This document shows positions 8,219 through 42,171 of a stretch of DNA of 52,057 nucleotides, piece by piece; within the stretch, counting starts at the first letter, position 1; each line of letters begins with the position of its first letter. This stretch comes from a virus. Taxonomy: Duplodnaviria; Heunggongvirae; Uroviricota; Caudoviricetes. The notes beneath the pieces were generated by a model. It did not search any database and was not told the origin of the DNA. It was given only the letters and a program-made list of their open reading frames with translations. A program made the translations under genes and the position numbers. The DNA lies in the IMG/VR virus record IMGVR_UViG_3300031951_000044; one strand, 5' to 3'.

Positions 8219-10558
8219 TTAAAATATATATGAAACTGCGAATTGTTGTATGCCTTCTCTTACTTGTGGCGACTGTAATTTAGAAATAACCACTAAATCT
8301 TTATCCTCATCATATAAACCAATTTCAGTAACATATGTTGAAGTATTTGCTGACCATGTTGGGTTACTACTAATTTTAAACTGATTATTTGTTAAATTAA
8401 CAACATATTTCATCTGATAAATGGTTGATTGTATATCTGTTTCAATATTACCATAGAAATAATATTCATCACCAAAATTTAAGCAATTACTGGTTTCATT
8501 AAGGTCGGGTAATGAAATGTATGAATCTAAATTATATGTTGCACCATTATCATATAACATCTTATCAATTATAAATGAAGTTGTAGTTAATGAATTAACT
8601 GTTAAATATCCAGATGATAAAGTTGAAGCGGAAACTTGATTAGTAACATCAATTTCTTTCCAGTTAGTTGGGGAAGGTCTCTGATTTCCAATAACTTTTT
8701 GAGCTAAAATTATTATTTTTTCAGCATAAAATCCGGTATTACATGTTGTACCAGTTCTTAAGAATGGAAATTCGTCACCAAATCTAACAACAATATTTTT
8801 TTGTGTTGGGTCACATTCTTGGTCTGGTCCTTGTATTACACTATAATAGTTACAATGCAATGAATTTGTAAAAGTACTATTATCAAAACGATATGTTAAC
8901 CACAAATATTCCTGATTATTAGTTAATAACCCCTCATTAATTGATGAATAGTTTTGACATAAATTTGGTGAAAGTAAACTAATATTCGGTGCTGGTAATG
9001 TCCAGTTTCTGTTTGCTTTATAAGACATTGCAGCAATAATTTCTTCATCATCAATGATTACCATTTTAGAATCCGGGTAAACCTTCCCAACCCTATTCAA
9101 ATTACCATTCGAATCTGGATTTAAATCCCAAAGATGGTAATACCTCATACCCTGAGAAACCATATCATACCTTTCAGTTACCATATAACAAACATTTAAT
9201 CCACTATAACCCGGAGGATCAATATAGAATGTTTCACCAATTGTGTTACCTGTTGTTTTGTGCCATAATAACCAAGGAATATCTAATTTAAAGTTTTGTG
9301 CTAATCCTGTTGTTCCAGATGTTTCAGCATTAAGTTCTTGTGTTGCAAATTTTTCACCATATTCAAAATCAATTCCTTGATTTGTATAATGAATTATTGC
9401 AATTGCTTTCTGGTCTTTTGGTTCAACATAAATTTGTTCATCAAAAGAATTGTAGTAAAAAGTATCCGTTGTGGTGGTAATTCCAGAAGAATTAATAAAT
9501 TTTTGACCAGAGTTTGTTTGATATCCAAAATATTCTTTTGAACCTAGATAATTTTTACTAGCAAAATAATTAACATCTTTTGTTTTTGAAGAAAAAATAC
9601 CTGCTGGCGATTCACTCCAAGGAATTGCCATATTCCAAATCTTAACATAATCATTAGAGATGTCACAACTACTTTCAAAATTTATAGTTTCAGGATTCCA
9701 ATATTGTTCGGGTGTTTCGTAATCATAAAATCCCGTAAACCCAGATGGATAAATTAATAATTGTGCTTGTCCAGTATAACCTAATGATGCTAAGTCAGGT
9801 ATTTCCCTATCCAATACAAAAACATCATTTAATATACAACATATTCTATATGTTAAGATTGGATAACTACCAAGTTCACCACAATCAGCGTTACAATCAA
9901 AAATAATCGTTACAAAATCACCAACGATGGGTACACCCTCTTCTCTTGTATTACCACTTATTACACAAGTAGTTGTTGCTGTTGTACCGGTTAAATCACA
10001 AGGACCAAGAGTGGTTGTTGACGTTGTTGTCGTTGTGGTTGTTGATGTTATTGGATCACAACAACCGGTAAAGACAATTGGTGTTGTTGTATTACAAAAC
10101 CCACTAATTACTGTTATTTTTGTTCCTCCGGTTACTGAGGATAAATCAATATAATAATTTGATGTTACTAAATATCCCGCTTGAGTTATTGCAGACCAAG
10201 ACCCACTAGAACCAGTAAAAAATCCTCTAGATGGGACATTTTCAAATACAGAATCAAAGTCTGAACTCATATAAGGTAAACCATAAGTATTATTTAGATT
10301 TTCATCTAAATAAAACGGATATTTAATATTTGCTTTATTACTTTCAGGTATACCTGTGTCATTTTGTGAATTAAATTGTGGTTGTAAAATAAAATTATCA
10401 CTTTGATTATATCCAGAAATGGCATTATAAAATATCTCGCTATCACCGACTTGGAAATATTTTATTTTAAATTTCCCTTGTGATAGTTTTCTTCTACCCA
10501 CATCTGTAATCTGGGTATTTACTATTTTATTTGTATTTTTTAAAATATATGACATCAA
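8219..10558 (-). CDS. Virion structural protein, tail-collar/baseplate-like, paralogue 2
   Basis: Colinear with 5864..8215 (e.g. shared IPWSESPAGIFSS and IIDDEEIIAAMSYKANRNWTLPAP); poly-Thr linker. Confidence 0.6.
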   Translation of the reverse strand: MMSYILKNTNKIVNTQITDVGRRKLSQGKFKIKYFQVGDSEIFYNAISGYNQSDNFILQPQFNSQNDTGIPESNKANIKYPFYLDENLNNTYGLPYMSSDFDSVFENVPSRGFFTGSSGSWSAITQAGYLVTSNYYIDLSSVTGGTKITVISGFCNTTTPIVFTGCCDPITSTTTTTTTSTTTLGPCDLTGTTATTTCVISGNTREEGVPIVGDFVTIIFDCNADCGELGSYPILTYRICCILNDVFVLDREIPDLASLGYTGQAQLLIYPSGFTGFYDYETPEQYWNPETINFESSCDISNDYVKIWNMAIPWSESPAGIFSSKTKDVNYFASKNYLGSKEYFGYQTNSGQKFINSSGITTTTDTFYYNSFDEQIYVEPKDQKAIAIIHYTNQGIDFEYGEKFATQELNAETSGTTGLAQNFKLDIPWLLWHKTTGNTIGETFYIDPPGYSGLNVCYMVTERYDMVSQGMRYYHLWDLNPDSNGNLNRVGKVYPDSKMVIIDDEEIIAAMSYKANRNWTLPAPNISLLSPNLCQNYSSINEGLLTNNQEYLWLTYRFDNSTFTNSLHCNYYSVIQGPDQECDPTQKNIVVRFGDEFPFLRTGTTCNTGFYAEKIIILAQKVIGNQRPSPTNWKEIDVTNQVSASTLSSGYLTVNSLTTTSFIIDKMLYDNGATYNLDSYISLPDLNETSNCLNFGDEYYFYGNIETDIQSTIYQMKYVVNLTNNQFKISSNPTWSANTSTYVTEIGLYDEDKDLVVISKLQSPQVREGIQQFAVSYIF

Positions 10559-10577: not shown

Positions 10578-12479
10578 TTAGATTCTCGTTTGTTCCCATA
10601 AAAATTCAATAGAATTTGCATTTAATGGAATAACATATGAATATGTTGTTGAGCATGTACCTAAACCACCATTTAATGTCGTTAAAGTAGTATATGCGCC
10701 AGAATTTATAGAAACCTTTAATGTTCCAAATATTTTTGCACATGCACCACCACTTAAAAGCCCACCTAATTGTAACCATAAATTTATAATACCCCCTCTT
10801 GTTCCAGCTTGTACCGTTAATTGATTTGTGGTAACTCCGGTTAATGGTCCACCATTTACAGTATTTGCTAATGGGAAGCAACTAGTATTTTGTATTAAAC
10901 AACCTGTTGTAAAATTATATGATATTTTTGGTGTTGTACCCGGAGATGTTGGGTTATTTACATTTCCGCCATATGTAAATCCACTAAGTGCTGATTCGGT
11001 ATTTGTTAACCATTTGTTTGTAAATGATATATTTAATGGCGGTAAAATATAATTTAAATTGTTTGTGAATTGTGTATTTTTTACCAATCCGGAACTAATT
11101 GAGCGACATTTTTGTGGTGTGATTGTTAAATTTTTAGTTCCATATGACACAAGATTATTTGCTGACGATGTACAACCTAATACAGACGATGTTGCTGATA
11201 ATGATGTGTTTGAATATACACTACCACTTAATGTATCACCATATGTTAATGAAACAGAATTATATTGTGTTATAGACGTTACAGATGTTAGTGTATTTGC
11301 TGAACAAACGCCGGAACCAACGGTGGTATTAGTTATTGTAGACGTTAAACCTGTTAATAAATTACCGTTTTTATATAATAATAAGTTATTTGTAAATACA
11401 GCATTACCCGGAGACTGAAAACTAGTATTAGTTCTAAAGTCAAAATCAAAAGTTAAAGTTTCACCAACTTGTAATATTGGGTTTGGTGTGATTACAAATG
11501 GTATAATTTCTTTCGTTTGTGAGAATTGCTGAATTATATCATAAACATTAGTTGGTGGTGTATATACTGTTGTTGGACTTGTTGTTGAGAAGTTCAAACT
11601 AAAAGTTCTTGTATTTGTTGTGTTCGATACAACCACAACATCAGATTTTGTTAAATTTGTTACAGTATCTTTAATTACTATTGTATATGACCCAGAATCT
11701 AAATTACTAAAAACAGGAGATGATTGATAGGTTAATCCACCATTTTTTGAAAATAAATAAGAACCGGAACCACCATTAGGGGTTACAATTATTGATCCGT
11801 CTTTTGAAGATTGACAAGCTGAATTTGTTATCGACCTAGAAAATGTTGCTGTCTGAGAACCGCAATTTCCCACCACAGCATAAACCTCAGGTCTATAATT
11901 TGAACCTTCAACCAACCAAGATAATGGTGGATTAGCCGTTGGTGGGTCATTTGCATATGTAATACCAGCATTGTAGCCTAATGGTGCGGTATAACCATCA
12001 AAAATCCATCTATTAGTTATTATATCATAATAAACTGTTAATGTGCTTGATGTCCAAGAATTATATCCATTTATAATATTTCCGGCTTGGAATGTAAAAT
12101 TATCACAGATATTAGTTTTACATCTACTTAAACAAAAAGTAACACCTGAGGTATAAGGTATTGTTGTTGTCGTTGTTGTATATGTTGTTGTGGTTGTTGT
12201 TGGTTGTATTAAAACACAAGTGGTAACTGAGGTAAAATCACCGTAATAATCTGTAACGGTTGCGGTATATTCACCACCACCAAGACCATATAAAGTTTGA
12301 CTTGTTGCACCATTACTCCATTGTATATTATATGGTGCTGTTCCCCCTGTAATTATTAATGACGCGATACCGTCAAGTGCAAGTGATGTTGACGGATTTG
12401 TTGTATTACACTCAACACCCAGTGGAAAAATTGTTACCACTTTACATTCATTAGTTGTTCCGCTACCTATTAATCCCAT
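10578..12479 (-). CDS. SprB-repeat-containing fibre/adhesin-like protein
   Basis: ITGGTAPYNIQWSNGATSQTLYGLGGGEYTATVTD and NGGSGSYLFS...SNLDSGSYTIVIKD are SprB-type beta-sandwich repeats; poly-Thr linker. Confidence 0.7.
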   Translation of the reverse strand: MGLIGSGTTNECKVVTIFPLGVECNTTNPSTSLALDGIASLIITGGTAPYNIQWSNGATSQTLYGLGGGEYTATVTDYYGDFTSVTTCVLIQPTTTTTTYTTTTTTIPYTSGVTFCLSRCKTNICDNFTFQAGNIINGYNSWTSSTLTVYYDIITNRWIFDGYTAPLGYNAGITYANDPPTANPPLSWLVEGSNYRPEVYAVVGNCGSQTATFSRSITNSACQSSKDGSIIVTPNGGSGSYLFSKNGGLTYQSSPVFSNLDSGSYTIVIKDTVTNLTKSDVVVVSNTTNTRTFSLNFSTTSPTTVYTPPTNVYDIIQQFSQTKEIIPFVITPNPILQVGETLTFDFDFRTNTSFQSPGNAVFTNNLLLYKNGNLLTGLTSTITNTTVGSGVCSANTLTSVTSITQYNSVSLTYGDTLSGSVYSNTSLSATSSVLGCTSSANNLVSYGTKNLTITPQKCRSISSGLVKNTQFTNNLNYILPPLNISFTNKWLTNTESALSGFTYGGNVNNPTSPGTTPKISYNFTTGCLIQNTSCFPLANTVNGGPLTGVTTNQLTVQAGTRGGIINLWLQLGGLLSGGACAKIFGTLKVSINSGAYTTLTTLNGGLGTCSTTYSYVIPLNANSIEFLWEQTRI

Positions 12480-12480
12480 T

Positions 12481-12693
12481 TTATGGTGTTTGACAATTTA
12501 TTATTTCACATCCATTACCATCCACCGCTTTAATACAAAAAGTTTCCATAATATCATACGGTGGTGGTATAATAAAATCATATGGTAATGATGAAATTGT
12601 TGCTATCCAAAAACAGTTATCTTCATCAGAATCACAAACATAAATATCATATGGTGTCTGACCTGTTATATTATTTATTGTTACTTGTATCAT
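12481..12693 (-). CDS. Small Cys-containing virion protein (single beta-domain)
   Basis: 70 aa; similar to the N-terminus of 23202..23999; ATGA overlap with downstream gene. Confidence 0.65.
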   Translation of the reverse strand: MIQVTINNITGQTPYDIYVCDSDEDNCFWIATISSLPYDFIIPPPYDIMETFCIKAVDGNGCEIINCQTP

Positions 12694-15326
12694 GATTCAC
12701 AAGGGGTTTGATCTGTTGTTATATTAACAAAATTAGGATTGATATTTTCATCAATAACTATTGTATTTAAACAAGCACAAATTGTGACAGTTGTTGTCGA
12801 TGGACCAAGACCACCTCTACCTAATATTGAATTTATTAATGTGTTATTACAATCAATATAAGTAAACGGTACTTCAAGTGTAGAATAATTGCTTAAAGTA
12901 TATGTAACACATTCGCAATCAGGACATGGACATTCCGAATCTATTGAGTTAAAACACAACCCAATTGGATTAACATAGTCATTATCACAAACAGGACAAA
13001 TTGGGTTTTGTCCAACGCCTAACTGACCGTATGAATTGGTACCCCATGTAAATATTGTACCATTAATATCTTTTGCGAAAAAAACTAAGTTTTGAGTTCC
13101 AATGCCGCCTTGTTCCGCTTGACCACCAGCCCAGACATAACACCAATCATTTTTTGTTTCTAAATTAATTCTATCAATATTGTCTTGTAAAAGTGTTTTT
13201 ACATTTGATCCATATCCTTCACCCCAAGTCCAAATTCTGTCACCATTTAAATTCGGTGTCCAATTCACACCATTTGGTGCAGTAAATGGTGCAAAATTTA
13301 AAGTTATACCAGACGTAATGGCTAATGTCATATCACCAACAGCTATTACTGATGTATATCCTGAATTTGTATTAGCACCTTCAGATTGAGAACTTGGTGG
13401 ATTTACAGAAATTCCACCATCCATAGGAAACGGTCTTGAATTATCAACCGAACCACAATTAAAGCAATCTAACTGACCTTGGGTATTTTGTCCCCATCCC
13501 CATATTGATGTGTTATCAGCTAATGCAACGGAATGATAATTTCCTGCGGATATTTGATTAAACACAACACTATTTGAATATAATGGGTATGTTGGTATTG
13601 TAATTTGTGTTGGTATTTGAGCTTCTTGATTAGCTGGTCCCGCACCTAATCCTAATGGGTTTCTCTGAGGAATTGTTAAATTAGTTCCCCAAGAATAAAT
13701 AGTTCCATTATTTTTCAAACCAAGCGTATGAAATAATCCTCTAGCAATTTCTTCCCAATCTGTATCAGAACCAATCTGTGTAAATTGCATTTTATCTAAA
13801 TTATCACCTAAACCTAATTGATATTTTTCATTAAAACCTGTTCCCCAAATTGTACCATTACTTCTAAGAGCAATTGTTGCTGTATTTTTTGACCATATTT
13901 TTAACCACCCATTTGGGGTTGGTGAGGTGACTTGAGTTAATGTATCAATATTAGATATACCATCGTTTAATCCTAGTTGATCTCCACCATTATTTGAGGA
14001 AGAATTACCGCAAACAAATAAATCCCCATTTGAATTGATTGCAAATGTTGATTCTAAACCAGCTTCTACATAAACCCAAGGGTATGCACCACTTGTTGGG
14101 TCTATCATTTGTTGTGGTATATAGAAAGAACCGCCAGTATATCCTAAACCTAATTGACCAACTGAATTGCTTCCCCAAGAAAATAATGTATCACCACTAA
14201 TACCCACCGTATGTCTATCACCAACTGAAATCATTGTAAATCCACAATCAGAACAAGTTGGTTCTGGTGTTGGTGTTGGGGGAGGACCATCGGGAATTGG
14301 TATACAACTACTATCACAAGATGTTATTAAAACAATTCTAAATTGACCATTACCCGCACTCCAAGTATTATTACCCAATAGTGTTTTAGGAGTTATTATA
14401 GAACATGCACAAATTTGTATTGATTCACCAGCATTTAAATTTGTTATAATTTTTGGTTGATTATTACAATCATTATACACAAAATTATCATTTCCAAATA
14501 TTCTACCAATTTGGTATCTATCGCAACAATTACAGGTACAACCAGTATAAATTGTTGTTATACAAGTTGCAGTAAGCGTATTTGCGCTTAACATGTATCC
14601 TGACGGACATCCCGCCTTAACAAAAGGTCCAGTTTTTCCTGCTGTGGTTAATAAAGAATTTGTACTATAAATAATATCCAAATCATTATCATTAGTCGCA
14701 TTAATAATTTCAGAATATGTGCTATCATATATTACTAAACCAACCGCATTTTGAATAATACCTGACGAAGTAATTGTTAAATTAATATGATTATCACAAG
14801 ATAGTAAAGTAATTGGAATTATGTGCCAAAATCTATGATAGAGTTGTGAATTTGAACCAATTATAGACGCATCACCAGATAAAATAATATCATTATTTAT
14901 TGTTAAATTTATTTGTCCTGTTGGATAAATCCAAGCCCCAAAACCTAGATAATACTGATTTGTTGTTCCTGAATTATAAAAATAATAACTAAGAGTTAAT
15001 TCACCTGAAATTATTTCTGTTGACCCATTGCAATCTCCGTCATACCAAACAGCTTGTCTATTCATGGGACCAAAAATTGAATTTCCTGTTGATCCCCACT
15101 GAGTTGCTGGTGAAGTTAAATTCGCTTGAATACCCAAAAATCCGGGGTCAGATGGAAATTCAGCATAAATCGATTCATTAGTAAAATTTGTATTATAGAT
15201 TCTTGTACCATTAATACTATATTGAACATTATCTACTTTAGATAAACAACCAATAGTACTTGCTGTTACACTAGTAGTGTTTGAAGAAAAGCAATAAGAA
15301 CCACCACTACAATATTGATAAGACAT
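12690..15326 (-). CDS. RCC1-repeat (beta-propeller) fibre/receptor-binding-like protein
   Basis: SVGDRHTVGI..LFSWGSNSVGQLGLG; IARGLFHTLGLKNNGTIYSWG; ISAGNYHSVALADNTSIWGWGQNTQGQL; TWGTNSYGQLGVG. Confidence 0.8.
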   Translation of the reverse strand: MSYQYCSGGSYCFSSNTTSVTASTIGCLSKVDNVQYSINGTRIYNTNFTNESIYAEFPSDPGFLGIQANLTSPATQWGSTGNSIFGPMNRQAVWYDGDCNGSTEIISGELTLSYYFYNSGTTNQYYLGFGAWIYPTGQINLTINNDIILSGDASIIGSNSQLYHRFWHIIPITLLSCDNHINLTITSSGIIQNAVGLVIYDSTYSEIINATNDNDLDIIYSTNSLLTTAGKTGPFVKAGCPSGYMLSANTLTATCITTIYTGCTCNCCDRYQIGRIFGNDNFVYNDCNNQPKIITNLNAGESIQICACSIITPKTLLGNNTWSAGNGQFRIVLITSCDSSCIPIPDGPPPTPTPEPTCSDCGFTMISVGDRHTVGISGDTLFSWGSNSVGQLGLGYTGGSFYIPQQMIDPTSGAYPWVYVEAGLESTFAINSNGDLFVCGNSSSNNGGDQLGLNDGISNIDTLTQVTSPTPNGWLKIWSKNTATIALRSNGTIWGTGFNEKYQLGLGDNLDKMQFTQIGSDTDWEEIARGLFHTLGLKNNGTIYSWGTNLTIPQRNPLGLGAGPANQEAQIPTQITIPTYPLYSNSVVFNQISAGNYHSVALADNTSIWGWGQNTQGQLDCFNCGSVDNSRPFPMDGGISVNPPSSQSEGANTNSGYTSVIAVGDMTLAITSGITLNFAPFTAPNGVNWTPNLNGDRIWTWGEGYGSNVKTLLQDNIDRINLETKNDWCYVWAGGQAEQGGIGTQNLVFFAKDINGTIFTWGTNSYGQLGVGQNPICPVCDNDYVNPIGLCFNSIDSECPCPDCECVTYTLSNYSTLEVPFTYIDCNNTLINSILGRGGLGPSTTTVTICACLNTIVIDENINPNFVNITTDQTPCES

Positions 15327-15349: not shown

Positions 15350-17200
15350 TTATGGACAACAATCTGTTGTAGTTGATGTTGTTGTGGTTGTTGCCGGAAC
15401 GCAGTTATTACAATCGCAGAATACCGCATTAATTTCAGTCACAACAGTATTTGGTGAAATATTCATAACATCCTCAAGATAAGTTGCACAATCATATTCA
15501 CCATTAAATAATGCATTAATCGTTTCTCCAGTCTGAACGTATGTTGTTCCGGTAACTAAATTATCAACAGTATAATAAATTTGTCCTGTTGTACAACTTT
15601 GTAATTTTTTAACAACATCAGGACAAATAAATACGGTATTAACTAATTCAAATACACTACTACCGCTAAGTCCAACTGTTGGTACTGTTGTTGTTGATGT
15701 GGTTGTTGTCGTTGTAATTGATGTTATTGCTGTAATTGTTATATCAATACTTGTTGCTGAACATGGATTTGGTAATGGTGTCGATGTTGGTACCGGTGTT
15801 GGTGTGGGTGTAATGGCGTTATCGCATATTGTGTATGATAAACAATTACCACTACAAGATTGATAGACATAACCAGATGGACATGTGTAGCCTGAAGTTA
15901 AATAAGTAAACCCAGAATCAGCAACCAAATCAAAAATACCGCCAATTTGTGAAGATGTTGTATAAATAATATTTAAATCACTATAAACCGTTGCTGCGGT
16001 CAATTCAGATAATGTATTATCATAAATTTCGCAACCAAATGCCGCATCGGAACTAGTATTTAAACCAAATAATTCAATGACGTTTGTTCCCTGAGGAACA
16101 TCAATAGGATAAACATGCCAATATTTGAATGATGTTGTATCATTCCAAATAGATTGAACAACTGTTTGCCCGTTAAGTCTAAATGAGAACTTATTATCAG
16201 CACCTAGACCAACATAATAAGTTTTTGCCGATGTTGATTCAATGCAGAAAGAATAACCAATCCAAGTATCCTCTGGTAAATCTGTTCCACCTGTTAATGT
16301 TGTCCAAATACCCGATCTATTTAATGGACCATCTATTATAGTATTTCCTGAAGTATTTCCCGTATTTTCCCAAACTGTTGTTCCTGTTAAATATGAAACA
16401 GTGGTACCAGTACCGTCAATTGAATAACCCGAATCATAAATAAAAGTTCCAAATTCTGAATATTCAAAATAAGTTTGACTAATTGCACTGTAAGTGGTTG
16501 CTGAATTTGGTGTTGTTGCCGCCGTTGTCTGAATACAAACACATGATGTACCAGTATATGGTTGCCAATCACAAGAAGATGGTGAGCATATACAACATAT
16601 TTGACAAGGTGTTGGCGTTGGTGTGCAATCAAAAATCGCATCAAAATTAATTAGACACGTAGTTGTTGTGGTTGTCGTTGGGCATTGACCTGTAAAAAAT
16701 ATATCATCACATATATCTGGACATATTGATTGACAAGGTTCAGCACCAAATAAAATACATGAACCACCCAATGAACTAGACAAACACCATTTATTACCGT
16801 CATAATAAACAACTGCGGTTACTCCACTTGTTGTTGCAGTATAAAAATAATTACCATTATATGAACCAACCACTTGATAATCACCGTCATAACTTATTGT
16901 ATCTACAAAATTTGTATTTAAGCAATATTTTCCAATATCACAAAGAGTATTAGCACTTAAACACTCTTCACATGAAGTATATGTCGCTGTTACTGTAACA
17001 AAAGAACCCTCAAAGGTATATCCGGAGCCTGAAAAATTTACGACAGTAGAACAACCAGAGTATGGTTGCGCTCCATTCGATGTGTTTCCGGTATATTCAA
17101 TAAAATATGTTGACCCTGTTGATAGGGAGGTTAACGTATATGCACTTAAAATGAATAGATAATCATTATTTGCACAATCTCTAAGTTGATAATCAGCCAT
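15350..17200 (-). CDS. Cys/Thr-rich virion structural protein with mucin-like linkers
   Basis: 616 aa; several poly-Thr and PTPTP tracts, many Cys; internal domain shared with 12690..15326. Confidence 0.65.
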   Translation of the reverse strand: MADYQLRDCANNDYLFILSAYTLTSLSTGSTYFIEYTGNTSNGAQPYSGCSTVVNFSGSGYTFEGSFVTVTATYTSCEECLSANTLCDIGKYCLNTNFVDTISYDGDYQVVGSYNGNYFYTATTSGVTAVVYYDGNKWCLSSSLGGSCILFGAEPCQSICPDICDDIFFTGQCPTTTTTTTCLINFDAIFDCTPTPTPCQICCICSPSSCDWQPYTGTSCVCIQTTAATTPNSATTYSAISQTYFEYSEFGTFIYDSGYSIDGTGTTVSYLTGTTVWENTGNTSGNTIIDGPLNRSGIWTTLTGGTDLPEDTWIGYSFCIESTSAKTYYVGLGADNKFSFRLNGQTVVQSIWNDTTSFKYWHVYPIDVPQGTNVIELFGLNTSSDAAFGCEIYDNTLSELTAATVYSDLNIIYTTSSQIGGIFDLVADSGFTYLTSGYTCPSGYVYQSCSGNCLSYTICDNAITPTPTPVPTSTPLPNPCSATSIDITITAITSITTTTTTSTTTVPTVGLSGSSVFELVNTVFICPDVVKKLQSCTTGQIYYTVDNLVTGTTYVQTGETINALFNGEYDCATYLEDVMNISPNTVVTEINAVFCDCNNCVPATTTTTSTTTDCCP

Positions 17201-17224: not shown

Positions 17225-18205
17225 TCAGTAACCTTGTTTTTTAACAAGCAACCTCATATTTTCAACGTATTTATATGTTGCATTATTTTTATCAACATAA
17301 TCAAAAAAATCAATATTATTTCTTAATGAGTCTAACGGATTTTTATTAATAAAATCCGCCTTATAAAATCTTTCGTTTTTTTGTTGTTCGGTAATTCCAG
17401 CTAAATGAAAAATTGGGTTTGTTTCATATTTGTGAATGTCATCGGTTGCCCAAGAAAAATTTAATTCATTCACCACTTCGGTTTTATACCCCGCATACCA
17501 CATATTCCATAGAATGGACCACATTTCAGCGGTCCAAAATTGTATTTCACCGGGAGAAATTGGATATTTTTTATGAAAACTTAAAAGTTTATCATATAAT
17601 TCAGTTGAATCTTTATGGATTTTATCCCATAATTTCCATTCTTGTTTTTTAAAAACATATTGAGCACCGCCTGAATTTTTTTGATTTATCCTTATTGTTT
17701 CAGGATGTAATCCAATAACTTCCGACATTTCATCGATTAATTTATTTTCAGATAATATTGGATGTTTTTGTTCATATCTTTTAGAACATTCATTTAAGTA
17801 ACTATAACCTATATATCCAACAGTATCAGACATATAAATAATATCGTCATCTAAAAGTTTTGAAAAATTAGGAATTCTGGTTAATAGAATATCGGAATCA
17901 TGTAAAAAAAATAAATTACCTCTGCTTGGTTCTTCTTTTAACCACTTTGAAATTAAAAATGGTTTTATGCTTGGAATATAATGAGTTTTTTCTCTATCAT
18001 CTTTGTAAAAATGAACATTACCATATTTTAATTTTAGCGTCCTAGCACCCTTAGATGGTTTGTCCGCGCCATTATGAAGAGAAAAAATAACATGAATATT
18101 TTCTGGGGGTACTCCCTTTTCAATAAAATTATTTATATATACCTCTGCTTGCCAATGGAAGTAAGGTACATCATGTTGTGCCGATACAAATAATAATTCA
18201 CTCAA
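17225..18205 (-). CDS. GT-A fold glycosyltransferase, resembling plant GT95/GT96 protein O-glycosyltransferases
   Basis: DxD-type HDSD after a hydrophobic strand; YFHWQ, IKPFLISKWL and WTAEMW parallel the Y..WQ / N(R/K)P....WL / W..EMY blocks recalled for HPAT/SERGT enzymes. The GT call is fairly firm; the family call is tentative. Confidence 0.6.
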   Translation of the reverse strand: MSELLFVSAQHDVPYFHWQAEVYINNFIEKGVPPENIHVIFSLHNGADKPSKGARTLKLKYGNVHFYKDDREKTHYIPSIKPFLISKWLKEEPSRGNLFFLHDSDILLTRIPNFSKLLDDDIIYMSDTVGYIGYSYLNECSKRYEQKHPILSENKLIDEMSEVIGLHPETIRINQKNSGGAQYVFKKQEWKLWDKIHKDSTELYDKLLSFHKKYPISPGEIQFWTAEMWSILWNMWYAGYKTEVVNELNFSWATDDIHKYETNPIFHLAGITEQQKNERFYKADFINKNPLDSLRNNIDFFDYVDKNNATYKYVENMRLLVKKQGY

Positions 18206-19023
18206 AGGTTTCTATAAAAAATATCATAATACCATTTATAACGGTCTTGAATCCAATTACAAACACCCTCACCTAAGATTTCTTTTGCGTTACTTTTTGG
18301 TAATTCAAGTTTTGTTTTGATTGTGTGGTCGCCATATATTCCATATACAGAATCATCTTCTTTTGTTATTTGATCAATTCTATCAAAAGAGTGATAAAAA
18401 GTTGGTAATTCAAAATAATTATAAATCCTTTCAACTTCTCTTCTTGGGTTAGTTACCAAATCTTCGTATCTTATAAAAAGCATTTTTTGATTATTTCCTT
18501 CCCTAAAAATTTGATATAGTCTTTCAACTGCTAAACCAACTGGTTGACTATTTGCCCAAATATCAACTCTTTTCTCGGTTGTTGTGCCTAGCATTTTTGA
18601 GTGGTCTATTAAACCGGAATCCATATGCTGATTTTCCCTAAACTTTTTTTCAAGAGAACAAAATATGTCTCGTAAATCTCTAACCATACAAATTATTTTT
18701 GGATTTGGATAAAATCCATCTAAAAAATTGTAATGTATTCCCCACCCTCTACTTTTATCTAAAACATATTTTTTATCTGTAATTGCATTAAAAAAACCAA
18801 ACATACCGTCATGACAAAATTTATTAAAACCACTTTTCATTAATTCATATTCTTGTGCTTTAAATTCTGGTGAATTTGTATAATTATTTCTAGCAGCATA
18901 AACCAATTCAAGAACACCAGAAGTCGGTGTTACATAAAAATTTGGATTTTGTCCTATTATATTTTGTAATAAAGTTGACCCCGCTCTAGGTAATGAGGAT
19001 TGAAAAAATATTTGTTCTGGCAT
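18202..19023 (-). CDS. PAPS-dependent sulfotransferase (P-loop, Sulfotransfer_3-like)
   Basis: 5'-PSB SSLPRAGSTLL; 3'-PB MVRDLRDIFCS; RYEDLVTNP. Confidence 0.9.
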   Translation of the reverse strand: MPEQIFFQSSLPRAGSTLLQNIIGQNPNFYVTPTSGVLELVYAARNNYTNSPEFKAQEYELMKSGFNKFCHDGMFGFFNAITDKKYVLDKSRGWGIHYNFLDGFYPNPKIICMVRDLRDIFCSLEKKFRENQHMDSGLIDHSKMLGTTTEKRVDIWANSQPVGLAVERLYQIFREGNNQKMLFIRYEDLVTNPRREVERIYNYFELPTFYHSFDRIDQITKEDDSVYGIYGDHTIKTKLELPKSNAKEILGEGVCNWIQDRYKWYYDIFYRNL

Positions 19024-19901
19024 TATTGTAAAATTGTTTGAATTACGATTTCAGGATTAAAAATATTATCATCAATAAATGGGCATTCTTGTGTTGAACC
19101 ATTAAATGAATAATCGAATAAATAACTGTCTGGTAGTTTTATTTCGGGTAAATTAGATATGATATTTTTATGTAGTCCATAACCAAAAACTGTTGGACTA
19201 GTCCCGACCCAGAGAACCACTGAAGGTAAACCCATTGCCGCAGCAGCGTGTTGTAAACTAGAATCAATTAAAACTCTTTTTTCTGATGCCATTAATAGCG
19301 AAAAAAGCTCCATATTTGTCATGGGTTTAAATAAGGGTTCAGTTCCTTCAATTACATTATTTTCATTTCTACAAATCTGTATTATATGATAATCATTTTT
19401 AAAAGCATTTACAATTGCTTGTGATGTAGAAAATGGCATATCTCTTGTCCAAGAGTAATTATATGGTTGTTCATTTATTGGACCACCATTTGTCTGAAGT
19501 ATCATAATTGGTTTATTACGTCTCCAATCTCTAATTGCTAATTGTTTATGTCTTAAATTAAAAACTAATTCAGGTGTTTCATTATTATATGTTAAATTAT
19601 ATATATTACACCAATTTTCAATTAGATGTTTCCTCTTGTAAATATGGTCTGTTGTAAAGTATGGTTCATGTTTAAATATTAAAGTATCATTATTTAATAT
19701 GTAATCCTGATAGAAATATGGCGTAATTCCAATTCTAAAAACTCTATCAACAAAAGGTAATGTTAAAAATACCTCAGGATAACTCGCAACAACAATTAAT
19801 TTTCTATCTTGATAGTTATTCTTAATACATTTTGCAACTGCTGTTGCTGCAACATTCTTTCCAAGACCACCTTCTATGTGAAAAAGACAATATTTTTCCA
19901 T
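19023..19901 (-). CDS. GT-B fold glycosyltransferase, GT9 (heptosyltransferase)-like
   Basis: N-term EGGLGKNV...KLIVV; C-term IDSSLQHAAAAMGLPSVVLW matches the GT9 DSG..H.A.A...P.V.L motif. Confidence 0.75.
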   Translation of the reverse strand: MEKYCLFHIEGGLGKNVAATAVAKCIKNNYQDRKLIVVASYPEVFLTLPFVDRVFRIGITPYFYQDYILNNDTLIFKHEPYFTTDHIYKRKHLIENWCNIYNLTYNNETPELVFNLRHKQLAIRDWRRNKPIMILQTNGGPINEQPYNYSWTRDMPFSTSQAIVNAFKNDYHIIQICRNENNVIEGTEPLFKPMTNMELFSLLMASEKRVLIDSSLQHAAAAMGLPSVVLWVGTSPTVFGYGLHKNIISNLPEIKLPDSYLFDYSFNGSTQECPFIDDNIFNPEIVIQTILQ

Positions 19902-19948: not shown

Positions 19949-22900
19949 TTAAGGTACGTAATATAGTCGATTTGAATCGGTTGAGCAATAATATATTGAC
20001 CCTGACGGTAGCCCAATAGGTCCGTTTGGTAATCCAATTATTGATAAATTATTAACAAACGTAGCACAATTTCTATTTGGTATGATATTTGACCCAATAA
20101 TAAAGGTGTTTGTATTACCTGTTATAGTATTATTTACACCGCCTAAAATACCAGATGATGTGGTTGCTCCAGAAATTATATTACCGCAACCACCGCCAAT
20201 AAATGAATAAACACCGCTTTCGGAATTATTAAATCCTCCAGCAATTGTTGAGCGACAACCAGATGATATATTTAATTGTCCTCCACCAACAAATGAATAA
20301 TTTCCTTGCGATCTATTTTGAAATCCACCTGATACCACAGAGAAATCACCATTTGGAATCCCTATCGCATTAATTAATATTGCTTGTGCGTCACTTGTAC
20401 CTCCTGTTGTGTTAGCACCAATTCCTGCTGCAATAGAACCACACCCTGTTGCAAAATTATTAACGCCAGCATTTATTGTTGAGTAGTTACCGCTAGCACT
20501 ATTTCTAGCTCCACCGGTTATTGTTGATCTTGTTGTGGCGCTATTTGCCCTACCGCCACCGATTGTTGATACTAATCCATAAATATAATTTTCCCTCCCA
20601 CCGGCTATTGTTGAGTCGCATAAAATACAATTACCGCTTCCAGTTATAGTATTCCCTGAACCTCCGCCAATAACGCTATATTTTTGGGCATATATTGAAT
20701 TATTGTAACCACCACCGATAAATGAACCTTCGGCATTTTGAAGACCGACTATTGGTGAAATTAAATTAGAACGACCACCAACAATTGTAGAAAAGATTGT
20801 TGTAGCACTATTGCAACTTCCACCAACAATTAATGAACATAAACCTGTTGCGGTATTTAAAAATCCGCCACCAATAAATGAATAATTATTAGAAGATAAA
20901 TTATTTTGACCACCAACAACAGTTGCGTAAGTTGTTGTCGCACTATTAGAACAACCTCCACCGATAAATGAACCACTACCACTAGCAATATTTGATAATC
21001 CTCCAACAACTACAGAAATAGCTGATGTTACACAATTTGAACTACCTCCACCGATAAATGAACCATCGCAACTAACAATATTTGATAATCCTCCAACAAC
21101 TGATGAATAAAGAGTTGTTGCGCCAGAAATTATATTACAGCGACCACCGCCAATAAATGAATAAGTACCAATATTAACATTTAATGCACCTCCAACAACC
21201 ACAGAAGCGTCAGATGTTGCACAATTTGAACTACCTCCACCGATAAATGAACAAGGACCACAAGATAAATTATTTTCACCTGCAACAATAACTGAACAAC
21301 ACGTTGTTGCACTATTCGAACCACCACCTCCAACAAATGAATTGTTTCCAGATGATAAATTATTTTCACCTGCAACAATAACTGAACAACACGTTGTTGC
21401 ACTATTGTTAAAACCACCCCCTATAAATGAACCTGAAGATAATGCTTTATTTGAACTTCCACCTCCTATAAATGAACAGTTTCCGGATGATAAATTACAT
21501 TCACCAGCAACAATAGTCGAATATGTTGTTGTTGCACTATTAGAACAACCTCCACCGATAAATGAACCACTACCACTAGCAATATTTGATAATCCTCCAA
21601 CAACGCTTGAATAAAAATTTGTCGTTCTATTTAAATAACCACCGGTTATAACCGAACCAAAACCACTCGCAATATTTAAACATCCACCACCAATTGATGC
21701 ATTATTATTGCAAATTAAATTGTTACTACCTCCAATTATAGATGAAAATGAACCACATATTTTATTATTATAACCACCACTTATAGTAGAATAAAATGAA
21801 TTTCCACTAAAACAACTTAAATTAGTGATGGAACCCTGAAAATAAACATTAGAACCGGTATCAAAAACATCTAATTGTATTTCAGTATAAGGTGGATTAT
21901 ATGTACTATTAGTTATTGCCGCACTATATATCACATTATCAATCCCATTATAAAAAGACGCTAAATTACCAATTTGATATATTGAAGTCAAATCTCCGGG
22001 AACACACACGGTATTACCTACATTATAATACGCACTTTGCGTTGTATTATTCAAACCATACCAATTTAAAATACCCCCACCAATAAAGTTATTAAAACCG
22101 TTATTTAAAGCAGAATTACCTTGACCACCAGCAATAACGGTACCTATTTGGCATGTGTTATTTGAATGACCATACACCGTCGAGTAAGCGCCGGACGCAA
22201 CATTAAGATTGTCTCGCCTAACCGAACTACAACTTCCGCTTCCAGAAATAATTACTGGTTGTGTCCATCCAGTAACCTGTACAGTACCGGCATCGGTTCT
22301 AGTTAATGTTAATGTATTTGTATTATCATCATAAGTTCCACCAGTAACATAGAAATCAGTATATCCACTTGTAAATCCACTAACAACAAATGTTCCACCA
22401 GAATTATTAAAGTAGGTTACTTCACCATTTAATGGATTATATGTGCCACCAGTTACAAAAACATCACCATATCCGGGTAATGTTACCGTTAATAAAGTTC
22501 CATCATTTCTTGTTGCACCTAAAGTATATGATGCTCCGGTATATGTTAATCCCGTAACAAATATATCCGTAGATGTTAAACCACTGATATCAAATGTCCC
22601 ACCAGAATTGTTAGTAAAACTTAGAGTACCAGCAGAATATGTTCCACCCGTTACATATACATCAAATGATGAAGATCCACTTTGTGATAAAATTCTCCAA
22701 TTTGCTGTCGCATATGTTGCACCCGGAGTTATTCCTTCAATTGTTGATGCTGTCCAAGCATCAATAAATGCTTGACCTTCGGGAGTTGAGCTATCAACCG
22801 TAGTACCAAATTGTGTTATTGTGACTGCGGTTGTTCCTGTTGCCGCACTAAATAATGATGTATAATTCGGAATGTTATATTGATATGTTGTTTCATTTTC

Positions 22901-23200
22901 ATAAACATATGCTAACATTCCTAATCTTCTTCTACCAGAAGATATATTATCAGAATTTAAAGTTAATACATCAGGATTTGGTGTGTTTATATTTAAACGT
23001 ATTGGAATTGTATTTCCTGAAGTTTCAACAGGTCCAGAAGAACCCACCGGTATTGTATAAATTAAATCATTTACAGAATATACTTCAACATAACCACCAA
23101 TACCTAATATACTAAAATTAGTTCCATAAAATCGATTTGGATTTACCGATTCGGGCGCATTTAATTGCGTTGCTGTTTGTGGATTTTTATATAATGACAT
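19949..23200 (-). CDS. Long tail fibre/adhesin with 15-aa S-x-I-x-GG-x-x-N repeats
   Basis: 1083 aa; D.(Y/F)VTGGTY repeats in the N-terminal third, then dozens of SFIGGG..N repeats typical of trimeric beta-roll/beta-helix heads. Confidence 0.75.
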   Translation of the reverse strand: MSLYKNPQTATQLNAPESVNPNRFYGTNFSILGIGGYVEVYSVNDLIYTIPVGSSGPVETSGNTIPIRLNINTPNPDVLTLNSDNISSGRRRLGMLAYVYENETTYQYNIPNYTSLFSAATGTTAVTITQFGTTVDSSTPEGQAFIDAWTASTIEGITPGATYATANWRILSQSGSSSFDVYVTGGTYSAGTLSFTNNSGGTFDISGLTSTDIFVTGLTYTGASYTLGATRNDGTLLTVTLPGYGDVFVTGGTYNPLNGEVTYFNNSGGTFVVSGFTSGYTDFYVTGGTYDDNTNTLTLTRTDAGTVQVTGWTQPVIISGSGSCSSVRRDNLNVASGAYSTVYGHSNNTCQIGTVIAGGQGNSALNNGFNNFIGGGILNWYGLNNTTQSAYYNVGNTVCVPGDLTSIYQIGNLASFYNGIDNVIYSAAITNSTYNPPYTEIQLDVFDTGSNVYFQGSITNLSCFSGNSFYSTISGGYNNKICGSFSSIIGGSNNLICNNNASIGGGCLNIASGFGSVITGGYLNRTTNFYSSVVGGLSNIASGSGSFIGGGCSNSATTTYSTIVAGECNLSSGNCSFIGGGSSNKALSSGSFIGGGFNNSATTCCSVIVAGENNLSSGNNSFVGGGGSNSATTCCSVIVAGENNLSCGPCSFIGGGSSNCATSDASVVVGGALNVNIGTYSFIGGGRCNIISGATTLYSSVVGGLSNIVSCDGSFIGGGSSNCVTSAISVVVGGLSNIASGSGSFIGGGCSNSATTTYATVVGGQNNLSSNNYSFIGGGFLNTATGLCSLIVGGSCNSATTIFSTIVGGRSNLISPIVGLQNAEGSFIGGGYNNSIYAQKYSVIGGGSGNTITGSGNCILCDSTIAGGRENYIYGLVSTIGGGRANSATTRSTITGGARNSASGNYSTINAGVNNFATGCGSIAAGIGANTTGGTSDAQAILINAIGIPNGDFSVVSGGFQNRSQGNYSFVGGGQLNISSGCRSTIAGGFNNSESGVYSFIGGGCGNIISGATTSSGILGGVNNTITGNTNTFIIGSNIIPNRNCATFVNNLSIIGLPNGPIGLPSGSIYYCSTDSNRLYYVP
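20940..21604. repeat. Exact intragenic direct repeats in fibre gene (71 bp x2; 53 bp x2)
   Basis: 71-bp copies at 20940..21010 and 21534..21604; 53-bp copies at 21264..21316 and 21354..21406. Confidence 0.85.
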
Positions 23201-24002: not shown

Positions 24003-26135
24003 TTATATATCGTCACATGTTATATCATAAATAATTATAAGTTCAATTTTTACTCCAATATCACTTAAATTATTATTTAATGTGCAATCGGAATTTATAA
24101 TTATTTGGTTATTTGTATAATCAATTGTAACATCACCAATACCACTTATAGATTCAAGTAAAGTTTCTATTGTTCCATAAAGTTGTTCATCTGTTGGTAC
24201 ATCAATTAATGAATAACTTGTATAAACCGAACCAGATGTTGTTATTGTATTTGCAGTGACGCTTGCAATAAATTGAGCATTGTTAAGAACACATGTAGTG
24301 TCGCCGGTTGTTATATCCTGAAAACCATAATTTAACATTTCAATTAACCCAAATTTATTACCATAACTTAACTCCATATTATCGGAACAAATATTGAATG
24401 TTCTATATCCAGTATAAAGTGCGCTACAAGTAATTTCTATTTCTTGCGTATCTGTACAACCATTACTATCGGTTATAGTTACTGAGTAGTTACCAGAAGT
24501 TAATCCTGTTGCATAAATACCGCTAGAAACGCTTGGGAACCAATTTATTGTAAACGGTGGTGCACCAGATGTTAATATTACAGTTATTGTTCCTTCACTA
24601 CCTAAACCACAATCTGTGCCAAATAATGTGAAGTTTAATGGTGGTTCTTCTTGTATATAAAAACTTGAACTGATTACGCAACCTTCTTGGCTAGTTACAT
24701 TTGCAACATAATTTCCTGTGGGTAAATTTGTAAATGTAAAATTATCATCAACAGACAATGAACTTAAATTAACGGGTCCACTTATTTCATATAAAAATGG
24801 TGATGTGCCGCCTGTTGTTTTTTGTATTAAAACAACGCCATTATTTTGTCCGCAAGTTGACCCGGTTGTTGAGGTAGAAACGTTAAATAAGGGTGTTGAT
24901 ATTATTGACAACGATTGTGTATAAACACAAGTTGTACTACTTGCTGAAATAATTAAAGTGTATGAGCCACCTGATAAATTAGTGAAAGTTTGTGTTAAAA
25001 AATTAGATATTAACGACTCAGTACCATTTGGTCCGTCTATTTGATAGAAATATGGTGCTGTTCCTCCATTTATTACAACACTAATTTGACCATCGGTTGC
25101 ACCACAAGTTGTATTAACGACATTTACAGAAACAATATCAAAGGTATTTGGTGTTTCTAATGAGGTTGTTAATTGCGTATTGCATAAACCAACATCAGTT
25201 ATTGATACGCTAAATGGTCCTGAAGAAAGTCCAGTAAACACATAATTTGTTGAATATGTAATTTCTGTTGTAGCATTAGAACCGGAATAAAAAAATGGGC
25301 CGGTACCTCCCGTTACTGTTATAGTTATTTCCCCATCAGAAGAAAAACAGCTTGGAGAAATTACACTAGTTACAAAAGCACCCAACGAATCTGTTTGAGG
25401 TAAGTTATAAGCCGTAGTCAAAGAGCAGTTATCTGCTGAAGTCACATTAACGGTATATAGACCACTTGTTAAACCACTGATTGTACTTCCAGTTTCGCTT
25501 AAAATAGGTCCATTAATATCGCTCCACTGATAAGTAAATGGTGGTGTTCCAGTTTCCCCTGTTATAATTATTTTTCCACCAGTGCCGACACAACTAGTTG
25601 CGGGTATAATAAATGCACCATATGTTAAATTAGTAGATTCGTGAATAATACATGTTTCAGTAACACCAGTACATCCACCAGCATCTTCAATAACCCCATA
25701 ATAGATTCCGGGAGATAATGAGATAAATGTATGACTTTCACTTGTTGCTGTATAGCTATCAACTAAAGATGTACCACTATATAAATAAAAAACATTTTCA
25801 AATGGAGAACTTGTATTACCTGATATTGTGATTTCACCATTATTTTGATTACAAGTTGTATCTACTACATTTATTATTGATGCGCAAGCACCCGAACTAA
25901 TTGTAACGTTTACTAAGCTAATATTATTTGGTGTACTTGAGTCGTTTACCTCCACAAAATATGTTCCAGCGGATAATCCAGTTTGTGTTTGTCCGGTACC
26001 TAAATATGGGTCATACCACAAATAACTAAAAGGAGATGTGGTATTAACATTAGGTACTGCGGTTAAAGTCGCAGCACCAAGATTACTATTTGTACAATCA
26101 CCGGTTAATATTATATTGACATCAAAAATATTCAT
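24003..26135 (-). CDS. Multi-SprB-repeat fibre/adhesin-like protein
   Basis: Repeated C...DG.I.V...GGT.P(F/Y).Y...........GL..G.Y.V.(V/I)TD..GC units. Confidence 0.8.
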   Translation of the reverse strand: MNIFDVNIILTGDCTNSNLGAATLTAVPNVNTTSPFSYLWYDPYLGTGQTQTGLSAGTYFVEVNDSSTPNNISLVNVTISSGACASIINVVDTTCNQNNGEITISGNTSSPFENVFYLYSGTSLVDSYTATSESHTFISLSPGIYYGVIEDAGGCTGVTETCIIHESTNLTYGAFIIPATSCVGTGGKIIITGETGTPPFTYQWSDINGPILSETGSTISGLTSGLYTVNVTSADNCSLTTAYNLPQTDSLGAFVTSVISPSCFSSDGEITITVTGGTGPFFYSGSNATTEITYSTNYVFTGLSSGPFSVSITDVGLCNTQLTTSLETPNTFDIVSVNVVNTTCGATDGQISVVINGGTAPYFYQIDGPNGTESLISNFLTQTFTNLSGGSYTLIISASSTTCVYTQSLSIISTPLFNVSTSTTGSTCGQNNGVVLIQKTTGGTSPFLYEISGPVNLSSLSVDDNFTFTNLPTGNYVANVTSQEGCVISSSFYIQEEPPLNFTLFGTDCGLGSEGTITVILTSGAPPFTINWFPSVSSGIYATGLTSGNYSVTITDSNGCTDTQEIEITCSALYTGYRTFNICSDNMELSYGNKFGLIEMLNYGFQDITTGDTTCVLNNAQFIASVTANTITTSGSVYTSYSLIDVPTDEQLYGTIETLLESISGIGDVTIDYTNNQIIINSDCTLNNNLSDIGVKIELIIIYDITCDDI

Positions 26136-30022: not shown

Positions 30023-31144
30023 TTAGTTTATTTTTACCACATTAAAAAATCCATAACCATATTTTTCTAAATCACCAAGATTATCAACTTCACCTATTCT
30101 TTGTATTCTTTCATACGCAGAATTTTTTCCTCTCTCAATAAATATATTAGATTGTACTTCTGGTTGCATAGAAATCTTAAGAAGGTGTTCTTCTTTTACA
30201 ATTGGTTCCTCAAGCAACCATTCAGCAATTAACCCACTGCTTAATCCGCTATAAATTGTTGATCCATCGGGTAAATCAAAAAATTGTACTGACTGAGTTA
30301 CACCTGTTCCAATTGTGTATCCAGTACTCCCATCAAGACACGGATTACAATCAATACTACCAATTTGTTCACCACCTAAAAATACAGGTCCGGGCGCGAA
30401 TGGATTTGAACCATAACGAGCTAAATCATTAATTCTAGAATAAGTATAACCAGTTATTGCAAATGGTGATGAAATATAATTTGGGATTGAGATTTGTTCT
30501 GCAACAGAATTATTTGCATCATAATCATAAATAAAATCATAAGACGCTGGTGTTGCTGTCCAAGAACCTGTCGTAACATCAAATAATACCGTTCCGGATG
30601 GGTTTGAACTAATTGGAGATTGATTTAAAGGTATTACTATATTTCTAGTTGTTTCAATAACCCCAAAAATATTTAAAGAAGTTAATGTTATTTGATAATT
30701 TCCACTTGATGCATAAAAATGACAACTACTTAAGGGTGAAAAAATATTAATCGGTTGTGTTGGTGTCCCATCGCCCCAATTAATTGTATATGTTGTATTT
30801 TGATTTACTAAAAAAGTGTTGAACTGAACATCCGATGTATTGTATACACAAATTGTATTAAATGTTGTATCCGCTGAATCAGCAGAATATATGAAGTTAT
30901 TTAAAATTTCTTTCTGTATTATATCACCATCCCATGTGCTATAATAACCAATATCTTCAAAATTTTGATTTAAATAAACGGGTAAAGTCATATCGGTATA
31001 TAAAGAACTACCATTTGTTCCACCACTCAACATTTGGGTCATGGAAGAAAAAACTTGAGCGGTACCCCCACTATAAGTAACAGTTGTGTCGTTTGTTAAT
31101 AAAACCTCAGGAGAAATTTTTATATATATCGTATTTTCTTCCAT
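30023..31144 (-). CDS. Structural protein with PKD-like domain
   Basis: YTINWGDGT...HFYASSGNYQITLT is the PKD WDFGDG...H.Y...G.Y.V.L pattern. Confidence 0.65.
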   Translation of the reverse strand: MEENTIYIKISPEVLLTNDTTVTYSGGTAQVFSSMTQMLSGGTNGSSLYTDMTLPVYLNQNFEDIGYYSTWDGDIIQKEILNNFIYSADSADTTFNTICVYNTSDVQFNTFLVNQNTTYTINWGDGTPTQPINIFSPLSSCHFYASSGNYQITLTSLNIFGVIETTRNIVIPLNQSPISSNPSGTVLFDVTTGSWTATPASYDFIYDYDANNSVAEQISIPNYISSPFAITGYTYSRINDLARYGSNPFAPGPVFLGGEQIGSIDCNPCLDGSTGYTIGTGVTQSVQFFDLPDGSTIYSGLSSGLIAEWLLEEPIVKEEHLLKISMQPEVQSNIFIERGKNSAYERIQRIGEVDNLGDLEKYGYGFFNVVKIN

Positions 31145-42163: not shown

Positions 42164-42171
42164 TTTAATAA

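Follow-up and report, generated by a model that had tools for sequence, protein, structure and literature searches.

Why does a tailed phage carry two glycosyltransferase genes and a sulfotransferase gene in the middle of its fibre genes, and what do the three enzymes modify? The question is raised by a stretch of 52,057 nucleotides from the Caudoviricetes record IMGVR_UViG_3300031951_000044 (the whole stretch is called the window here), in which genes for a GT9-like glycosyltransferase, a sulfotransferase dependent on 3'-phosphoadenosine 5'-phosphosulfate (PAPS) and a GT-A glycosyltransferase follow one another on the minus strand. The answer that we favour, on balance, is that this cassette unites two modules for decorating the virion within a single string of late structural genes. 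For the GT-A enzyme, O-glycosylation of virion proteins is well supported by comparison between phages and appears very likely. For the GT9-like/sulfotransferase pair it is plausible, if not quite probable, that the two enzymes build a sulfated glycan on the virion. What is unusual in the window is the joining, by translational coupling into a single cassette, of two modules that otherwise occur apart.

The three genes are tightly joined. P0001, a GT9-fold GT-B glycosyltransferase of 292 residues by structural model and Foldseek, is encoded at 19023-19901. P0002, a PAPS-dependent sulfotransferase of 273 residues by Pfam and its PAPS motifs, lies at 18202-19023. P0003, a GT-A glycosyltransferase of 326 residues with a TTG start, belongs to phrog_4417, is a candidate poly-Thr protein O-glycosyltransferase and lies at 17225-18205. 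Direct reading of the sequence shows that the stop of the GT9-like gene and the start of the sulfotransferase gene overlap as TAATG at 19021-19025, as the initial annotation of this DNA had it. The overlap between the sulfotransferase and GT-A genes at 18202-18205, which that annotation gave as ATGA, reads TTGA, a TTG start over a TGA stop. The TTG start is supported by the length of the homologues, which are also 326 residues long. The rest of what had been assigned here stands: the three open reading frames and their position inside a string of fibre genes agree with the frame coordinates and the gene context, and the three enzyme classes with the GT9-fold model, the Pfam sulfotransferase match and the GT-A model with its DxD motif.

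P0003 is invisible to most sequence comparisons. It has no Pfam or NCBIfam match, and it matches phrog_4417 at 2e-66, a family that PHROGs labels 'unknown function'. Ten members of the P0003 family give no Pfam match at E 10 in a local Pfam copy in which the presence of PF23452 is unconfirmed, and the family profile finds nothing useful among PDB sequences. The fold is more informative. In a structural model with a predicted local distance difference test (pLDDT) score of 94, the best 50 of 296 Foldseek matches in the PDB (E <= 0.001) are all GT-A, and the GT-A enzymes matched in the PDB include WbbM, UGGT, glycogenin and LgtC. The top Swiss-Prot structural match is the plant peptidyl-serine alpha-galactosyltransferase SGT1 (GT96), with a template modelling (TM) score of 0.64 and an E value of 2e-9. 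The hydroxyproline O-arabinosyltransferases HPAT/RDN (GT95) reach TM 0.54-0.60, and generic GT8 enzymes trail at 0.40-0.46. A language-model feature search likewise places HPAT-bearing clusters near P0003, with PF23452 on 10% of the members of one neighbouring Atlas cluster. The family keeps D103 and D105 of the DxD motif, H267 and K282 without exception down to 31% identity (14 sequences). With a metal-dependent GT-A fold and a conserved DxD, P0003 is, as modelled, a GT-A glycosyltransferase.

Which proteins this enzyme might act on is suggested by its neighbours. Tracts of Ser, Thr and Pro, defined in the window as runs of six or more such residues, are found in all five large genes just downstream of P0003 (5864-17200) and elsewhere in the window in one tested gene only (33688-38802). 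All five genes are on the minus strand. The nearest encodes a fibre-like protein of 616 residues (15350-17200), a candidate O-glycosylation acceptor with poly-Thr/Pro-Thr tracts from residues 174, 193, 464, 496 and 604. It is followed by an RCC1-repeat fibre-like protein of 878 residues (12690-15326; Pfam RCC1/WD40_RLD) with a Pro-Thr tract from residue 348, and by a SprB-repeat protein of 633 residues (10578-12479; Pfam SprB) with poly-Thr tracts from residues 93, 101 and 298. The last two are large fibre-like proteins, one of 779 residues (8219-10558) with a 13-residue Thr/Ser tract from residue 171, the other of 783 residues (5864-8215) with Pro-Thr tracts from residues 168 and 189.

The same association recurs in other phages. 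Among aquatic loci carrying a P0003 homologue (from IMG/VR and elsewhere), poly-Ser/Thr or Pro-Thr tracts are present in 73% of the first and 80% of the second genes downstream of the GT-A gene, at a rate of 15-28% upstream of it, and at 3-6% at a distance of at least six genes. In a sample of 21 loci from genome collections, comprising 20 Bacillota prophages of many genera and one contig of a metagenome-assembled genome labelled Woesearchaeota, the gene immediately upstream of the GT-A gene carries a tract in 18 of the 21, and no tract is found at gene positions -2 to -4, +1, +3 or +4. In the prophages these upstream tracts are C-terminal poly-Thr tails. All seven cultured phages examined have poly-Thr tracts on major tail, capsid or other proteins that flank the GT-A gene. 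This gene comes right after that for the major tail protein in phiFL1A, phiCTP1, 1706, LpeD and vB-SscS-F1 and right after the capsid gene in R3.3, and in these six Gram-positive phages the tail or capsid protein before it ends in a poly-Thr C-terminal tail. In Chryseobacterium phage MA9V-3, long internal Thr/Ser tracts lie on two proteins encoded just upstream of the GT-A gene. Phages without the enzyme provide the converse: in Javan47, 315.6, phiJL-1 and ATCC8014 the tail-tube proteins are 50-60% identical to that of phiFL1A and stop before the Thr tail, and the capsid proteins of these four also lack one. It is this co-variation of the GT-A gene with Thr tracts that appears to be the strongest argument for glycosylation of virion proteins. 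A literature search found no paper describing poly-Thr tails with phage glycosylation, Thr-rich major tail proteins or HPAT-like phage enzymes.

Two of the cultured phages have tail proteins of odd composition. In Lactobacillus phage LpeD, orf68 (L097:11584-11988), annotated as 'major tail protein', has 134 residues and consists mostly of six Thr/Ser-rich repeats; its public annotation, which carries a note on herpesvirus glycoprotein gp2, probably reflects composition only. In Staphylococcus phage vB-SscS-F1 (L098:9773-11925) the annotated major tail protein is split in two by a gene for 295 residues, and long poly-Thr runs, terminal or internal, are found both in its second part and in the small protein that comes next.

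The first enzyme of the pair, P0001, is assigned by its fold. Its match to Pfam PF01075 covers residues 198-247 only and scores 16.5 bits, below the cut-off of 22, which a fused member of the family (P0234) passes with 22.9 bits; the family profile finds nothing useful among PDB sequences. The AlphaFold model, built with 72 diverse homologues, has a pLDDT of 95.5 and a GT-B fold of two Rossmann domains, nearest to GT9 structures. Its top Foldseek matches in the PDB, 3tov, 1psw (WaaF), 6dfe and 2h1f, are GT9 enzymes (TM 0.58-0.68), with 3tov at 0.67; WaaC and the protein heptosyltransferase TibC (TM 0.54-0.61) are also among the structural matches. A G11-G12-x-G14-K15 loop near the N-terminus is almost invariant in the family. 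Heptosyltransferases of lipopolysaccharide (LPS) have an N-terminal catalytic Asp, Asp13 in WaaC. The family is large, with 746 representatives at 50% clustering, and some members are fused to a GT25 glycosyltransferase or an FkbM methyltransferase, which suggests assembly of an oligosaccharide with decorations.

Both Pfam scores and PAPS-binding motifs place P0002 among the PAPS-dependent sulfotransferases. It matches PF13469 (Sulfotransfer_3) at 2e-19 with 71.2 bits (cut-off 27) and PF00685 (Sulfotransfer_1) at 6e-14 with 52.6 bits (cut-off 22). The 5'-phosphosulfate-binding motif (P12 R13 x G15 S16) and the 3'-phosphate-binding motif (R115 D116 ... S123) are invariant in its family (28 sequences). 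Among NCBIfam models NoeE (NF052394), a fucose sulfotransferase, fits best, at 2e-7 with 30.2 bits, short of the equivalog cut-off of 500. Homologues of this sulfotransferase are very abundant, with about 3000 clusters.

The initial annotation had put the three enzymes into a single pathway. As a unit of descent this pathway does not hold: the cassette is two modules side by side, separate in almost all other phages. None of the 80 IMG/VR loci with a P0003 homologue (51-58% identity) has a GT9-like gene or a sulfotransferase gene within 10 kb, and none of 81 loci with the sulfotransferase (62-74% identity) has a P0003 homologue. The complete cassette, together with the surrounding fibre synteny, is found only in the 75%-identity relatives L005 and L006. 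In several GT-A-only loci, homologues of the fibre protein encoded at 19949-23200 directly precede the P0003 gene; the GT9-like/sulfotransferase pair thus seems to have been inserted between a fibre gene and that for P0003.

The pair itself recurs widely. In 41 of 78 distinct loci the sulfotransferase gene comes immediately after the GT9-like gene, in a further 17 the two are one gene apart, and a fusion of the GT9-like enzyme with GT25 (40% identity) is directly followed by an overlapping sulfotransferase gene. The gene upstream of the pair in the window (19949-23200, minus strand) encodes a Gly/Ser/Asn-rich repeat fibre protein of 1083 residues with repeats of about 15 residues containing GGG and no Pfam match; it is a candidate acceptor for the pair. 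In 36 of 59 loci a homologue of this fibre is encoded upstream of the GT9-like gene at a distance of four genes at most. As an obligatory partner of the pair the repeat fibre was ruled out, since its homologues also occur in the GT-A-only loci. A position beside fibre genes, which the initial annotation had set against a random one, is thus conserved in the relatives. In Pelagibacter phage HTVC112P, too, a GT9-like homologue of 25% identity directly follows a tail-fibre gene. The preceding HTVC112P protein, gp48, has an Asn/Gly/Thr-rich repeat that is comparable to that of 19949-23200 and has no detectable sequence similarity to it. In Marine virus AG-345-L05 (L088:8702-10888) a sulfotransferase gene (27% identity) and a GT9-like gene (52% identity) are separated by one small gene and stand in the reverse order to that in the window.

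What the relatives add to the pair bears on its chemistry. Their cassettes include an NMNAT-like nucleotidyltransferase, DUF2061, GT8, HtrL/YibB and Pro-Thr repeat proteins, and the set of glycosyltransferases in the fibre cluster differs from phage to phage. The relative L092 has a TibC/Aah-like protein O-heptosyltransferase beside the GT9-like gene (TIGR04414 at 2e-32, 112.6 bits, cut-off 200), and its fibre cluster (L092:14650-17531) has a Skp1-type (hydroxyproline) N-acetylglucosamine transferase (PF11397 at 1e-69) and HtrL/YibB beside Pro-Thr repeat proteins. The presence of such protein-type glycosyltransferases argues for a protein acceptor. Supply of activated sulfate by cysC, the gene for adenosine 5'-phosphosulfate (APS) kinase, which the initial annotation had proposed to look for, is found in relatives: the gene lies within about 10 kb of the sulfotransferase gene in 32 of 81 related loci (PF01583 at 6e-21), directly after it in 26 of the 81, and is absent from the window and from AG-345-L05. 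That phages carry an APS kinase next to the sulfotransferase speaks for a sulfation that is real and costly. In one arrangement, seen at L092:10822-11934 and in 31-34 of the 81 loci, the sulfotransferase gene is followed by genes for an APS kinase of 155 residues, an NMNAT-like nucleotidyltransferase of 152 residues with the motif GRFQPxHxGH and a DUF2061 membrane protein of 67 residues. Our guess is that the NMNAT-like protein could serve as a minimal sulfate adenylyltransferase, with which a PAPS pathway of the phage would be complete.

Gene order, folds, motifs and the Thr-tract co-variation are observed; a protein acceptor, the following order of steps, the sugars involved and the placing of sulfate on the virion are inferred. 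The first module would be a soluble GT-A protein O-glycosyltransferase (17225-18205), which probably puts the first sugar on Thr in the poly-Thr/Pro-Thr linkers of the five downstream fibre-like proteins. An initiating protein O-glycosyltransferase had been postulated in the initial annotation, and the SGT1/HPAT fold and the link to Thr tracts make the GT-A enzyme, not the GT9-like one, the best candidate. In Gram-positive phages phrog_4417 appears to act on the poly-Thr C-terminal tails of capsid and tail-tube proteins. The second module, a mobile and translationally coupled GT9-like and PAPS sulfotransferase pair, would add a sugar and then sulfate it, either by extending the glycan of the first module or by acting on the Gly-rich repeat fibre encoded just upstream. 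In the window phage PAPS would come from the host, and many relatives would bring their own APS kinase. The tail fibres of widespread aquatic phages may then be coated with sulfated O-glycans in a proteoglycan-like manner, a picture that we put forward tentatively. That such a fibre coat is built by a protein O-glycosyltransferase, a GT9-like extender and a sulfotransferase, often with a phage APS kinase, is likewise possible rather than probable.

Several points weigh against this reading of the two modules. The compared loci share descent, and the percentages given for Thr tracts around the GT-A gene overstate the number of independent events. Thr and Pro-Thr linkers are common in modular fibre proteins, glycosylated or not. 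The repeat fibre is present in loci without the GT9-like/sulfotransferase pair, and many loci with the pair have no Thr-tract protein nearby. P0001 has no NCBIfam match at E 0.01, the TibC/Aah model TIGR04414 included. GT9, GT8 and GT25 are classic enzymes of the LPS or lipooligosaccharide (LOS) core, and phages such as P22 carry genes that modify the host O-antigen beside the tailspike gene, so that fibre adjacency alone is no proof of a virion target. Lastly, the solved sequences closest to the sulfotransferase-family profile are the tyrosylprotein sulfotransferases TPST1 (2e-12, residues 5-211) and TPST2 (5e-9).

The most serious alternative is that the GT9-like enzyme and the sulfotransferase remodel a glycan of the host envelope (LPS or LOS core, capsule or exopolysaccharide) and that the GT-A enzyme alone acts on virion proteins. 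Such remodelling could mask receptors against superinfection or reduce the sticking of progeny to debris. It would fit the closest solved folds of P0001, which are the LPS heptosyltransferases WaaC and WaaF, as well as the GT25 fusions and the GT8 and HtrL/YibB genes of the relatives, all from LPS-core-type families. It would also fit the independence of the pair from the GT-A enzyme and its frequent location away from Thr-tract proteins, and such genes are read as host surface modification in the cyanophage literature (PMC12801897). The pair is, however, consistently found within fibre clusters and translationally coupled to structural neighbours; the cassettes of relatives hold protein-type transferases (TibC/Aah-like and PF11397) and Pro-Thr repeat proteins; and in the window the pair is coupled to the very GT-A gene that is associated with Thr tracts. 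Envelope remodelling is a rival, if unlikely, account of the pair.

A second alternative is that the sulfotransferase places sulfate on the fibre proteins themselves, at tyrosine or some other side-chain hydroxyl, and not on a sugar. In its favour is the fit of the family profile to TPST1 and TPST2, far above that to carbohydrate sulfotransferases in the PDB (heparan sulfate 3-O-sulfotransferase matches only at 0.01). The catalytic glutamate of these enzymes, Glu99 of TPST2 in the GEET motif, aligns in HMMER alignments of both TPST1 and TPST2 with the Thr of a conserved TPTSG motif in the phage family. With Thr where the catalytic Glu is expected, P0002 was ruled out as a true TPST. Operons of a hydroxylase, a sulfotransferase and a PAPS synthetase in bacteria have been predicted to act on tail-collar/collagen-like proteins (Iyer et al. 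2010, PMC2938197), which also favours direct sulfation. Against it stand the replaced glutamate, the best NCBIfam match being the carbohydrate sulfotransferase NoeE, and the almost constant pairing of the sulfotransferase gene with a glycosyltransferase gene. Moreover, Pfam and PHROG scans covering all window genes but a few small open reading frames found no prolyl hydroxylase or 2-oxoglutarate dioxygenase. Direct sulfation of fibre proteins is accordingly rated as quite improbable. A role in glycosylating the bases of phage DNA, or in making a small molecule that has nothing to do with virion or host surface, is scarcely credible: phage glycosyltransferases are classically tied to DNA glucosylation, but these genes belong to the structural module and not to that for nucleotide metabolism, none of their neighbours is a base-modification gene, the closest folds are those of protein- and LPS-acting enzymes, and the poly-Thr co-variation would be left without explanation.

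The preferred reading, two virion-decoration modules in one string, is set in a large genome of which the window covers part, from an uncultured aquatic tailed phage. Family scans identify baseplate wedge genes resembling gp25 and gp6 at 40325-42633, and both ends of the window carry genes for ribonucleotide reductase, helicase/primase and nuclease. From the wedge genes down to about 5864 runs a close-packed, co-directional string of minus-strand genes for large proteins, mostly without a family match, and the enzyme trio sits in mid-string, among fibre-like genes and downstream of the wedge genes. RCC1 beta-propeller, SprB repeats and a PKD domain are found in the fibre-like proteins encoded at 12690-15326, 10578-12479, 24003-26135 and 30023-31144. 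A scan with consensus promoters and terminators gave no excess of sites over shuffled sequence, and co-transcription of the string is therefore suggested by gene packing only. Between the fibre genes, at 12481-12693, lies a Cys-rich open reading frame of 70 residues, which is kept in distant relatives (37% identity at L092:14415-14633) and whose homologues bear a Thr tract in some of them.

A DNA search of the phage collection gave a single match, 84 bp to AG-345-L05, so there is no close cultured relative in it. At the protein level the nearest cultured relatives are distant: the baseplate protein is 27% identical to those of Flavobacterium myophages, and the closest cultured relative of P0003, at 37% identity, is that of a Chryseobacterium phage. 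Together with the SprB repeats, these nearest isolates hint at a host from Bacteroidota, which is plausible.

Experimental evidence of virion glycosylation in phages was found in the literature for mycobacteriophages only. If the proposed role of phrog_4417 is true, virion glycosylation extends to phages of lactic acid bacteria, enterococci, staphylococci, clostridia and Bacteroidota and to abundant aquatic myophages, and the acceptor can be recognised from sequence alone by its poly-Thr tags. Glycosylated capsids, tails and fibres would affect the stability and adsorption of phages, their immune recognition in therapy, and the biology of dairy phages. Several carriers of the GT-A gene are cultured phages, which makes direct testing possible. 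To our knowledge, no phage particle has been reported to carry sulfate; the charged surface chemistry that it would bring bears on how marine polysaccharides and particles are bound. What phage sulfotransferases do was stated to be unclear in 2023 (PMC10580990), and a sulfated fibre coat would be a first function for them; no paper joining a sulfotransferase to a tail fibre was found in the literature.

Five known systems offer points of comparison. P0002 shares its PAPS-binding motifs with TPST1 and TPST2, its closest solved sequences, and differs from them in the Thr at the catalytic position and in its almost constant association with glycosyltransferases. Nod-factor sulfation (NodH/NoeE with NodPQ) resembles the second module in that a carbohydrate sulfotransferase comes with its own supply of activated sulfate, here the APS kinase of the relatives; the NoeE score is far below its cut-off, however, the window has no APS kinase and the acceptor is not a lipo-chitooligosaccharide. 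The TibC/Aah enzymes with their adhesins TibA and AIDA-I provide the nearest parallel for a GT9-fold enzyme encoded beside a repeat-rich, adhesin-like fibre, although P0001 fails the TibC/Aah model and is better fitted by GT9 structures of the WaaF/WaaC type.

For the first module, the closest enzymes by structure are SGT1, a plant and algal enzyme, and HPAT/RDN, which glycosylate extensins and start the O-glycosylation of extensin-like proteins. Their matches to the GT-A enzyme, the best by structure, lie at TM 0.54-0.64 (E 2e-9 to 1e-6), and in both cases the acceptors are Pro/Ser-rich, extended, mucin-like tracts. Unlike them, the phage enzyme has no membrane anchor and no Pfam sequence match, and many of the phage acceptors are pure poly-Thr without Pro, so that Thr, and not hydroxyproline, is the likely target residue. 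The closest system by layout is the O-glycosylation of mycobacteriophage virions of the Che8, Corndog and Myrna type, reportedly described by Freeman et al. in 2023 (Cell Host Microbe). The window differs from it in its SGT1/HPAT-like GT-A family, in candidate acceptors that are internal fibre linkers and in the added sulfotransferase. In the mycobacteriophage system phage glycosyltransferases are encoded among structural genes, and tails of capsid or tail-tube subunits are the acceptors. The GT-A gene, too, is a glycosyltransferase gene in a structural module beside Ser/Thr-rich acceptor tails, and in Gram-positive phages the poly-Thr C-terminal tails beside the phrog_4417 gene reproduce the same layout.

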